Positions 16,125 to 61,736 of a stretch of DNA of 64,000 nucleotides are shown piece after piece (positions within the stretch are counted from its first letter, which is position 1; the number at the start of each line of letters is the position of its first letter). Origin of the DNA: Eledone cirrhosa (Eukaryota); contig CAXHJY010001082.1 in assembly GCA_964016885.1 (NCBI GenBank), positions 1 through 64,000 of the forward strand, written 5' to 3'. Both the position numbers and the translations under genes were made by a program. The notes below the pieces were generated by a model. The model ran no database searches. It was not told the origin of the DNA and saw nothing but the letters and a program-made list of their open reading frames with translations.

Positions 16125-16218
16125 ACCCCTTGAGAAGATCGGCTATTTAAATACCAGGATAAATGTTCATTTAGTCCAGAATTAGCCGTCGAAACGGCTT
16201 GAGCTCAGCTGTCGGGGT
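16125..16218 (+). ncRNA. Type I hammerhead ribozyme with variant U3:A8 core (family A)
   Basis: Stem I ACCCC/GGGGT; core TTGAGAA (16130-16136); stem II GA(T)CGGCTA/TAGCCGTC; GAAA (16191-16194); stem III ACGGCT/AGCTGT around palindromic GAGCTC; GUC site, predicted cleavage after 16213. Confidence 0.75.
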
Positions 16219-16928
16219 CTTACTGGTTCCTATATACGTATATATATATATATACATGTAATATATATATGTATATACGTATATATATATATATATGTAT
16301 ATACGTATATATATGTATATACGTATATATATACATGTAATATATATATGTATATACGTATATATATATATATATATATACAATATATATATGTATATAT
16401 ATATATGTGTACATATATATAATGTATACATATATATAATGTATACATATATATAATGTATAGATGTATATATATATATATATATAATATATATATTTGT
16501 ATATATATATATATATAATATATATATGTGTATATATATTATATATATGTATATATATATAATATATATATGTGTATATATGTATATATATATAATATAT
16601 ATATGTGTATATATGTATATATATTTAATATATATACGTATATATATATTTAATATATATATATATGCATATATATATAATATATATATGTGTATATATA
16701 TATTTATATATATATATAATATATATGTGTATATATATATTTATATATATATAATATATATATGTATATATATATTTATATATATATAATATATATATGT
16801 GTATATATATATTTATATATATATAATATATATATGTATATATATATTTATATATATATAATATATATATGTGTATATATATATTTATATATATATAATA
16901 TATATATGTATATATTACATATATATAT

Positions 16929-34710: not shown

Positions 34711-35272
34711 GTGTGATTATATACTTATCTATATATGTATATATGTACGTGCATGTTTGTTGTATGTGTGTATATGTATGTATGATGTAAGGATGTATGT
34801 ATGCATGTATGTATATGTGTGTGTGTATATATGTGTGTGTGTATGTATGTATATGTGTCTGTATGTGTGTATGTATATGTGGGTATGTGTGTGTAAGTAT
34901 GTAGTGTGTATGTGTATATATATATATATATATGTGTGTGTGTATGTATATATATATGTGTATGTGTGTGTGTGTGTGTATATATATATGTGTATGTGTG
35001 TGTGTGTGTATGTATATATGTGTGTGTGTAGGTATGTATGTGTGTATGTATATATATTTATATATGTGTGTGTGTGTGTGTATGTATATATGTGTGTGTG
35101 TAGGTACGTGCATATGTATGTATGTGTGTGTGTGTATATGTATATATATATATATGTGTCTGTGTATGTGTGTGTATGTATATATGTGTGGGTGTATGTA
35201 TGTGTGTGTAGGTACGTGCATATGTATGTATGTGTGTATGTGTATATATCTCTCTCTCTATATATATATATA

Positions 35273-35465
35273 TAACGAAGGAAATGTGGTAAGGAACCAG
35301 GTGGACCATAACGCACCAAAGTACTCAATACTTAGGGTAGTAGAGTGGGTAATAGGAACGAGTAGGACCCCGAAGGCTGAGCTCAAGCCGTTTCGACGGC
35401 TAATTCTGGACTAATTAGCCGTCGAAACGGCTTGAGCTCAGCCGTCGGGGTCCTACTCGTTCCTA
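35273..35465. mobile_element. Family A head-to-head inverted terminus pair (two HHR 3' halves)
   Basis: Left arm (minus) carries the HHR 3' half plus ~100 nt of downstream tail; right arm (plus) AATTAGCCGTCGAAACGGCTTGAGCTCAGCCGTCGGGGTCCTACTCGTTCCTA; junction near 35411-35414. Confidence 0.85.
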
Positions 35466-35522
35466 TATATACATATATATAGATATATGTGTATTGGTGT
35501 GTATGTGTGTGTAGTTACGTGC

Positions 35523-61200: not shown

Positions 61201-61524
61201 CCAATTTCTGTTCAATTCCACCGTGTGTTCGTCGGTGATATGTTTCGTGACTTCGTGTTAAAAATACTTTGTTGAGTTAAATTATCTAATCTTCTGAATG
61301 TAAAGCTGTTTGAATCTTTCAGTGAAGTCTGTTAATATTTTATCGTATGTCTAAGCATAATTTGAACATCAAAATATTATGTAGATAGTAAAAATATGAT
61401 TTCATAACAGTCAAAATAGATTGCTTATTACATTGTACATATAGCTTATTACGTTTTTAGTTCGTTTCAGCCGTCTATGGTAAGTTCATGATAGTGCAGC
61501 ATCTTATATATATATATATGTATA

Positions 61525-61705
61525 TAACGAAGGAATTGTGGTAAGGAACCAGATGGACCATAACGCACCAGAGTACTCAATACTTAGGGCAGTAGAGTGG
61601 GTAATAGGAAAAAGTATGACCCCGACGGCAGAGCTCAAGCCGTTTCGACGGCTATTTCTGGACTCCAGAAACGGCTTGAGCTCTGCCGTCGAGGTCATAC
61701 TTTTT

Positions 61706-61709
<4 letters not shown>
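61525..61709. mobile_element. Family A head-to-head inverted terminus pair, second locus
   Basis: Same organisation and near-identical tail as 35273-35465; junction near 61663. Confidence 0.85.

Positions 61710-61736
<27 letters not shown>

Follow-up and report, generated by a model that had tools for sequence, protein, structure and literature searches.

A U3:A8 hammerhead motif with a candidate RNA start in its loop II, at the end of a Penelope-like retrotransposon of Eledone cirrhosa

A natural U3-A8 covariation of the hammerhead 3:8 pair has been described and is stated to be active in vitro (Perreault 2011, PMC3088659). In Penelope-like elements (PLEs), U3-A8 was recorded with ~1,300 matches in Schistosoma (Cervera and De la Pena 2014, PMC4209133). 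The same work gives low in vitro activity for metazoan PLE hammerheads and proposes circular templates. For the Anolis Poseidon element PAc (Frangieh et al. 2024, PMC11167929), uncut RNA served as template, and the hammerhead (HHR) was dispensable in vitro and protein-assisted. HHR mutants were without effect on insertion in vitro, and no reads ended at the cut site; the single mutants C3G or G8C abolished cleavage and left insertion unaffected. The pseudo-LTR of the D. virilis Penelope element contains an internal, TATA-less promoter with Inr and DPE (Schostak et al. 2008, PMC2377424). These accounts follow the available parts of the cited papers.

We analysed a stretch of 64,000 nucleotides from Eledone cirrhosa (contig CAXHJY010001082.1, positions 1 to 64,000), called the window below. 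An initial annotation had noted in it a hammerhead-like motif with the core box UUGAGAA. The U3:A8 core alone adds little and cannot be called new, because it was already published from nature (PMC3088659) and from PLEs (PMC4209133), as the available text of both papers states. In this family, thousands of dated copies carry natural cores of both kinds, paired and mismatched. Helix III could work in a monomer, a candidate start lies inside the ribozyme, and there is a natural mini-array with a short loop; together these make both the need for cleavage and the template testable. The literature covered, which included few subscription papers, held no description of an amplified mismatch state or of a 5′ boundary inside the loop.

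Host element and hammerhead motif

The motif was proposed to be the terminal hammerhead of a PLE, and it does end an element with an RT/GIY-YIG ORF at 13673-16233. The following pieces of the element were found in the window (unit positions are given with a sign; +1 is A16173).

13673..16233, plus strand: 5′-truncated copy of a Hydra-clade PLE in a (TA)n target, unit +1032 to +3592 (identity to the full unit)
13673..15026, plus strand: 3′ two-thirds of an ORF for RT plus GIY-YIG, with YRDD, CxCx5C linker, YIG, CxxC and CxH (motifs, homologues)
15027..16233, plus strand: 3′ UTR or pseudo-LTR, which stops where extended stem I has its base (at this point loose ends run into (TA)n)
8425..8481, minus strand: short arm of an older subfamily, +5 to +61 (match to the unit)
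35272..35466, both strands: palindromic mini-insertion whose minus arm spans about -2 to +141 and whose plus arm spans +8 to +61 (match to the unit)
61524..61710, both strands: palindromic mini-insertion whose minus arm spans +1 to +141 and whose plus arm spans +19 to +61 (match to the unit)

Over 2561 nt, the window copy matched a natural full unit elsewhere in the genome (G000) with 99.96% identity. The full unit has 3531 bp, is found in tandem arrays elsewhere in the genome and encodes an ORF of 717 aa, with RWR at 37, DKT at 117, YRDD at 348, CxCx5C at 572, YIG at 606, CxxC at 670 and CxH at 698. Pfam had no family for the ORF, whole or truncated. Homologues numbered 2049 among 8000 candidates scored, with 38-54% identity in the best 120. 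The single ORF, RT followed by a C-terminal GIY-YIG, has the Hydra-clade motifs. The (TA)n target, the tandem or inverted arrangement and the one-sided tail were all present, as in that clade. By the motifs and (TA)n targeting in the available text of Craig et al. (2021, PMC8557442), the element matches the Hydra clade. Insertions had two fixed 3′ ends, one at 16233 (+61; 37 of 73 arms) and one 80 nt further (+141; 28 of 73 arms).

Other pieces were seen in passing. At L297:1971-5542 (G000:C1, 91489-91493 kb), a 55-nt piece from within the ORF (+1755..+1812) is repeated ~65 times in tandem; the repeats sit at an inversion junction and adjoin a five-unit array. A divergent, internally deleted older copy with a UUGACAA core (L035:6827-7500) adjoins a young insertion. 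On the minus strand of the window, 12519-13070 holds an ORF fragment without a Pfam match, and a similar piece occurs in locus L309. The fragment resembles the C-terminal zinc-knuckle/restriction-like endonuclease region of an RLE-type non-LTR retrotransposon.

Every part named in the initial annotation (three stems, GAAA, GUC and UUGAGAA) was present in the sequence at 16125-16218. All parts lie on the plus strand.

16125..16129, plus strand: stem I, 5′ arm, extending to 16119 (sequence inspection, fold, pair counts)
16130..16136, plus strand: core box UUGAGAA, U3 at 16130 and A8 at 16135, N7 free across subfamilies (sequence, genome census, fold)
16137..16145, plus strand: stem II, 5′ arm (sequence inspection, fold)
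16146..16182, plus strand: loop II, 37 nt (sequence inspection)
16183..16190, plus strand: stem II, 3′ arm (sequence inspection, fold)
16191..16194, plus strand: GAAA box, G12-A15.1 (sequence inspection)
16194..16212, plus strand: stem III, 6 bp, 16194-16199 with 16207-16212 (sequence, fold, pair counts)
16211..16213, plus strand: GUC triplet, C17 at 16213, predicted cut after C16213 (+41) (sequence)
16214..16218, plus strand: stem I, 3′ arm, extending to 16230 (sequence inspection, fold)

Around the core boxes the helix order is I-core-II-GAAA-III-NUH-I, a type I hammerhead arrangement (own descriptor and fold), and the Watson-Crick 3:8 pair of the window copy is U3:A8. Stem II has one bulge between its arms (16137-16145 and 16183-16190). 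The loop of stem III has 7 nt, includes a palindromic hexamer and is dimer-competent by sequence. Helix III has six pairs in the window copy and five in older subfamilies. By these features the motif is not a min-HHR (absent or 1-2-bp helix III, dimer-only fold), though it would work like a PLE hammerhead.

The minimum-energy fold of 16113-16233 was the hammerhead three-way junction (-27.7 kcal/mol), and the 11 pairs checked in it had probabilities of 0.48-0.98. Its energy gave no extra stability over shuffles (z -0.54; 54 of 200 equally good). The 3′ arms of stems II and III (16184-16190 and 16207-16213) are near-identical repeats, so the stems should be able to swap partners. In the predicted fold of an RNA beginning at +1, GAAA is buried in an alternative hairpin loop. 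Pattern searches for CUGANGA miss the family, as had been expected, and so did Rfam: no hammerhead family matched the motif at gathering score, and none was among 34 matches at E<=10.

Genome-wide, exact patterns gave 9570 matches for the 3′ half and 2099 for the core, and their reversed controls gave 0. In 56 aligned copies, GAAA, U16.1/C17 and the stem arms were 94-98% conserved versus 84% for the 5′ part of loop II; the search pattern dictated the letters of the core box and of the stem II 5′ arm, which therefore do not count as evidence of conservation. Stem positions were paired in 89% of cells versus 29-51% in slid controls. Two-sided changes occurred in 5 of 24 stem pairs, one cell each, and 21 of 500 shuffles were as high (56 rows, family too young). 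Stem covariation is weak. The 3:8 pair was standard in 39 of the 56 copies, a sample in which older forms are over-represented because the youngest subfamily is absent save for the window copy. Its position at the end of the RT/GIY-YIG ORF element and its conservation take the motif beyond chance, and 16125-16218 is almost certainly a PLE hammerhead motif.

Census and history of the 3:8 pair

In the youngest subfamily UUGAGAA is the genomic consensus, a point on which the initial annotation had asked for a check. It was found in 2099 of 2137 matches with these flanks (98%), and reversed controls gave 0. With relaxed flanks, the wider family had 6773 matches, which comprised 5070 U3:A8 (75%), 1559 C3-A8 (23%) and 144 other cores; U4, G5, A6 and A9 were required in this search, so that their constancy is partly built in. 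C3:G8 occurred at most 9 times, with a slightly looser pattern. A8 was nearly fixed across the wider family and N7 took all four bases. Position 3 alternated between U and C, and was only U or C in 56 of 56 aligned rows.

Both arms carried C3-A8 in 9 of 9 inverted insertions checked, so these copies do not reflect decay after insertion. Long ORF remnants in them were mostly 88-97% identical to the young protein, with one locus lower. Judged by their sequences, the C3-A8 subfamilies are real templates that were amplified and transposed. A C3-A8 core would be expected to be nearly inactive. A literature search covering few subscription papers found no kinetic data on it; the closest published result covered is the loss of PAc cleavage in the C3G or G8C mutants, which still inserted normally (PMC11167929).

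Two trees were calculated. The 3′ UTR tree used the last 800 nt and 20 rows (the window copy and those 19 of 67 loci whose upstream homology reached 700 nt or more). The ORF-end tree had 23 rows (99/97), and some of its ORF pieces may derive from partner arms. In both small, unrooted trees the C3-A8 rows formed a ladder or grade basal to a starred crown that holds the window copy. The crown was U3:A8 except for one row, and another, older clade was also U3:A8. Rooting with other Hydra-like ORF pieces gave long branches, with the outgroup as one clade in 52% of bootstrap trees. We infer that A8 is an old, early-fixed change and that position 3 moved between U and C. Since the C3-A8 subfamilies transposed and are basal to the window clade, the U3 of the window lineage was probably re-paired late, from a mismatched C state, and fast cleavage seems dispensable.

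Short copies, a candidate start and two template classes

The difference between 9570 matches for the 3′ half and 2099 for the core half means that roughly 78% of arms begin between the two, the patterns differing in length and subfamily reach. These arms are 60-140-nt pieces of palindromic mini-insertions, and their 5′ ends pile up in loop II at A16173.

16171..16176, plus strand: initiator-like TTAGTC with A16173 as +1, the 5′ boundary of short copies (copy ends, alignment; putative function)

Short arms were sampled in 58 loci from the first 100 listed matches, leaving out those seen with a core. An exact +13..+32 anchor was required, which excludes starts beyond +13. Among 97 anchored arms, 86 started at +1..+11 (17 at +1, 22 at +2), 10 at -1..-4, often sharing a junction base, and one was a long copy; none started elsewhere upstream. 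Between +12 and +60, 12 arms were seen to start in 121 loci, only one of them at the predicted cut. Positions -3..+7 were 96% conserved versus 84% for the rest of loop II (56 copies). The site reads TTAGTC in the window subfamily and TCAGT in a sister subfamily, with T and C alternating at -1. It fits an arthropod-type initiator of the YYA(+1)GTY type. The copy ends indicate that A16173 is likely the transcription start, or RNA 5′ end, of the element. An extra G, possibly cap-templated, was present at a few filler junctions (L058, L064, L070), too few to use. In the literature covered, with few subscription papers, no description was found of a start site inside a PLE hammerhead or of such palindromic mini-copies.

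Two other origins of the boundary were rejected. A splice acceptor at +1 does not fit, as the arms keep the AG and have no common leader. A second hammerhead cutting at -1/+1 was dismissed by inspection, with no matching stem III.

The ~37-nt loop had also been called unusually long. Its length was confirmed as 37 nt, but two other high-copy repeat families of this genome have canonical cores and a loop II of similar length. The second hammerhead family (L309, L321, L334-L358) had 1552 first-look candidates with a canonical core and long loop II. The third, older family (L314, L330, L359-L383) had 707 candidates, again with a canonical core and long loop II, and shows inverted arms and two 3′ ends. 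A pattern that combined the canonical core with TYAGT matched 48 times, and its control 14 times. In 25 loci from each of the two families, picked for full coverage, the initiator-like motif was not typical of the family, and the arm ends listed did not accumulate at +1. A long loop is therefore not unique to the present family, and a start in the loop is not general.

Short and long insertions were shown to be separate classes. The first 100 core matches included 28 long inverted pairs, and the median of their gaps was 2022 nt. Short arms pair with short arms: among 20 single long arms, just one was accompanied by a +1..+11 partner. Thirty loci gave 18 independent insertions that span +155..+255; 15 continue past +1 into the upstream unit, two are mini-tandems and one (L279) begins at +41/+42. 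Full-length arms stopping at +1 of the upstream unit were sought and rejected, with 0 of 16 ORF-bearing arms and none among 13 loci (L291-L303). This rules out a simple one-unit capped template, and a second template class is needed. The 15 run-throughs point to long copies from a template without a stop at +1, either a circle or tandem read-through. Short arms cross the uncut GUC site. The ORF-bearing arm at L279:1387 (G000:C2, near 40830.1 kb) has its 5′ end at the predicted cleavage site, +41/+42, and is a possible fossil of a cleaved template.

The first mini-tandem (L262-268/L384, G000:C2:356029.8-356032.1 kb, in (TA)n) has a 299-nt unit in which +1..+262 is joined to -58..-20. It has 8 starts and 7 complete U3:A8 cores, with loop II 19 nt shorter. 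The array is retrozyme-like, and its best predicted fold is not a hammerhead. The second (L273) is a +1..+336/+1..+141 dimer with its junction at +1. Both independent mini-tandems thus have a junction exactly at +1, which suggests that the RNA has its 5′ end there and that RT jumped, or a circle closed, at this end.

The account that we moderately favour is that of a young element with a type I hammerhead, a slow U3:A8 cut that is helpful and not essential, a transcription start housed in loop II, and two template classes. Transcription would start at A16173 of the upstream unit, giving an RNA with just the 3′ half of the ribozyme at its start and a complete ribozyme at its end. The U3:A8 core would cut slowly, or with protein assistance, after C16213. 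Reverse transcription begun at two sites near the capped, uncut 5′ end would run off at +1 and yield ~200-bp palindromes. Long and multi-unit copies would come from a second template without a stop at +1. This could be a unit circle, cut at both +41 sites and then ligated, with the leader half borrowing the downstream core; alternatively, tandem units could be read through. A8 would have been fixed early, and position 3 would have passed through a mismatched C before U was regained in the lineage of the subfamily that is active at present. A more specific version is unlikely as a whole. In it, a split ribozyme with the start in loop II sorts capped, uncut RNAs (thousands of 200-bp palindromes) from cut, circularised units (long and multi-unit copies), and a compensatory path led from C3-A8 to U3:A8 on the active trunk.

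There is a sizeable minority chance that the loop II pile-up does not mark a start at all, and instead reflects RT stalling at a structure, a YpA bond that is sensitive to nuclease, or a non-autonomous family of palindromes that propagates itself. In the predicted fold +1 falls within a weak hairpin, and T/C at -1 is equally compatible with a YpA cut and with a YAG splice acceptor. Some junctions recur, and long arms never stop at +1. From a stall, however, one would expect pairs of a short and a long partner, and such pairs are rare (1 of 20 singles, against 28 long-long pairs); moreover, the RT had already crossed stronger stems. The arms also include the AG, which makes a splice acceptor unlikely, and they join no common leader and have diverse junctions.

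The remaining alternatives concern the core. The initial annotation read UUGAGAA as a selected variant and not as decay, and the consensus in 2099 of 2137 matches agrees with this. What did not survive is a strict double change: C3-A8 accounts for 1559 of 6773 cores, was shared by the two arms in each of the 9 inverted insertions checked and is basal to the window clade in two trees. That U3:A8 is a strictly selected compensatory double change keeping an essential, efficient ribozyme is accordingly improbable, even with U3:A8 at 98% in the youngest subfamily and 75% overall, and with C3:G8 throughout the rest of the Hydra clade (all 26 File S2 rows in the available part of PMC8557442; 16 matches in 14 of 77 metagenome loci). 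The 23% of mismatch copies are real templates and lie on the trunk of the trees. The opposite case, a catalytically vestigial fold that serves as RNA structure for RT or protein recognition and as promoter DNA, with a freely drifting 3:8 pair, is somewhat unlikely. It would accommodate the 1559 amplified mismatch copies, the templates copied across the uncut site, the normal insertion of PAc HHR mutants in vitro with no reads ending at the cut site (PMC11167929, available text) and the low in vitro activity of metazoan PLE hammerheads (PMC4209133, likewise). It fits less well with N7 being free while variants of U4, G5, A6 and A9 never took over (partly pattern-built), or with GAAA and U16.1/C17 being 95-100% conserved though pattern-free. 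Position 3 was only U or C in all 56 rows, the paired state occurs in older and youngest clades, and one arm (L279) starts at the cut. A slow U3:A8 cut, likely helpful and not essential, remains our preferred reading.

Comparison with known systems

The following comparisons refer to the available parts of the cited papers. The U3-A8 variants of Perreault (PMC3088659) show the same covariation as here; they are not PLE-specific, and no mismatch intermediate is described in that part. The Cercyon PLEs of Schistosoma mansoni (PMC4209133), whose hammerheads are minimal, likewise have a type I hammerhead in a pseudo-LTR, with a U3-A8 core, a long helix II and a short helix I. They also share a palindromic loop 3 and many truncated and opposite-strand copies. 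Unlike Cercyon, the present element has a full 6-bp helix III, which could work as a monomer, a 37-nt loop II and a Hydra-clade affiliation. The amplified C3-A8 state and the loop II 5′ pile-up are found here, and neither is in the Cercyon description.

With the C-terminal EN+ PLEs of the Hydra clade (PMC8557442), the element shares RW[K/R], DKT, CxCx5C, CxxC and CxH and the lack of CCHH. (TA)n targets, inverted 5′-truncated arms, a one-sided tail and a 3′ hammerhead are also common to both. The element has a 3.5 kb unit, a 1.2-kb 3′ UTR and an 80-nt tail; the published Hydra-clade tail is 30-40 nt. All 26 Hydra hammerhead rows in File S2 are CUGANGA with a loop 2 of 3-10 nt (descriptor-limited), in contrast to UUGAGAA and 37 nt here. 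In 77 metagenome loci, a descriptor open at positions 3 and 8 gave 16 CUGANGA matches in 14 loci and no U3:A8, with one weak non-paired match. U3:A8 within the Hydra clade seems unreported in the sources available.

As in PAc of Anolis (PMC11167929), two internal RT start sites would bound the tail. PAc differs in its canonical core overlapping the start codon and in its clade, and no loop-internal RNA start is reported in the text available. The Penelope of D. virilis (PMC2377424) has an internal promoter, with Inr and DPE, in the pseudo-LTR of a partially tandem copy, and an internal start in the pseudo-LTR is proposed for the present element too. The start in Penelope is upstream of the hammerhead, with an intron behind it whose end is at helix I; the start proposed here lies inside loop II. 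Animal non-LTR retrozymes (bioRxiv 10.64898/2026.07.22.740005) consist of short tandem hammerhead units from PLE pseudo-LTRs, like the 299-nt array; unlike those spreading families, the 299-nt unit was seen here as one array.
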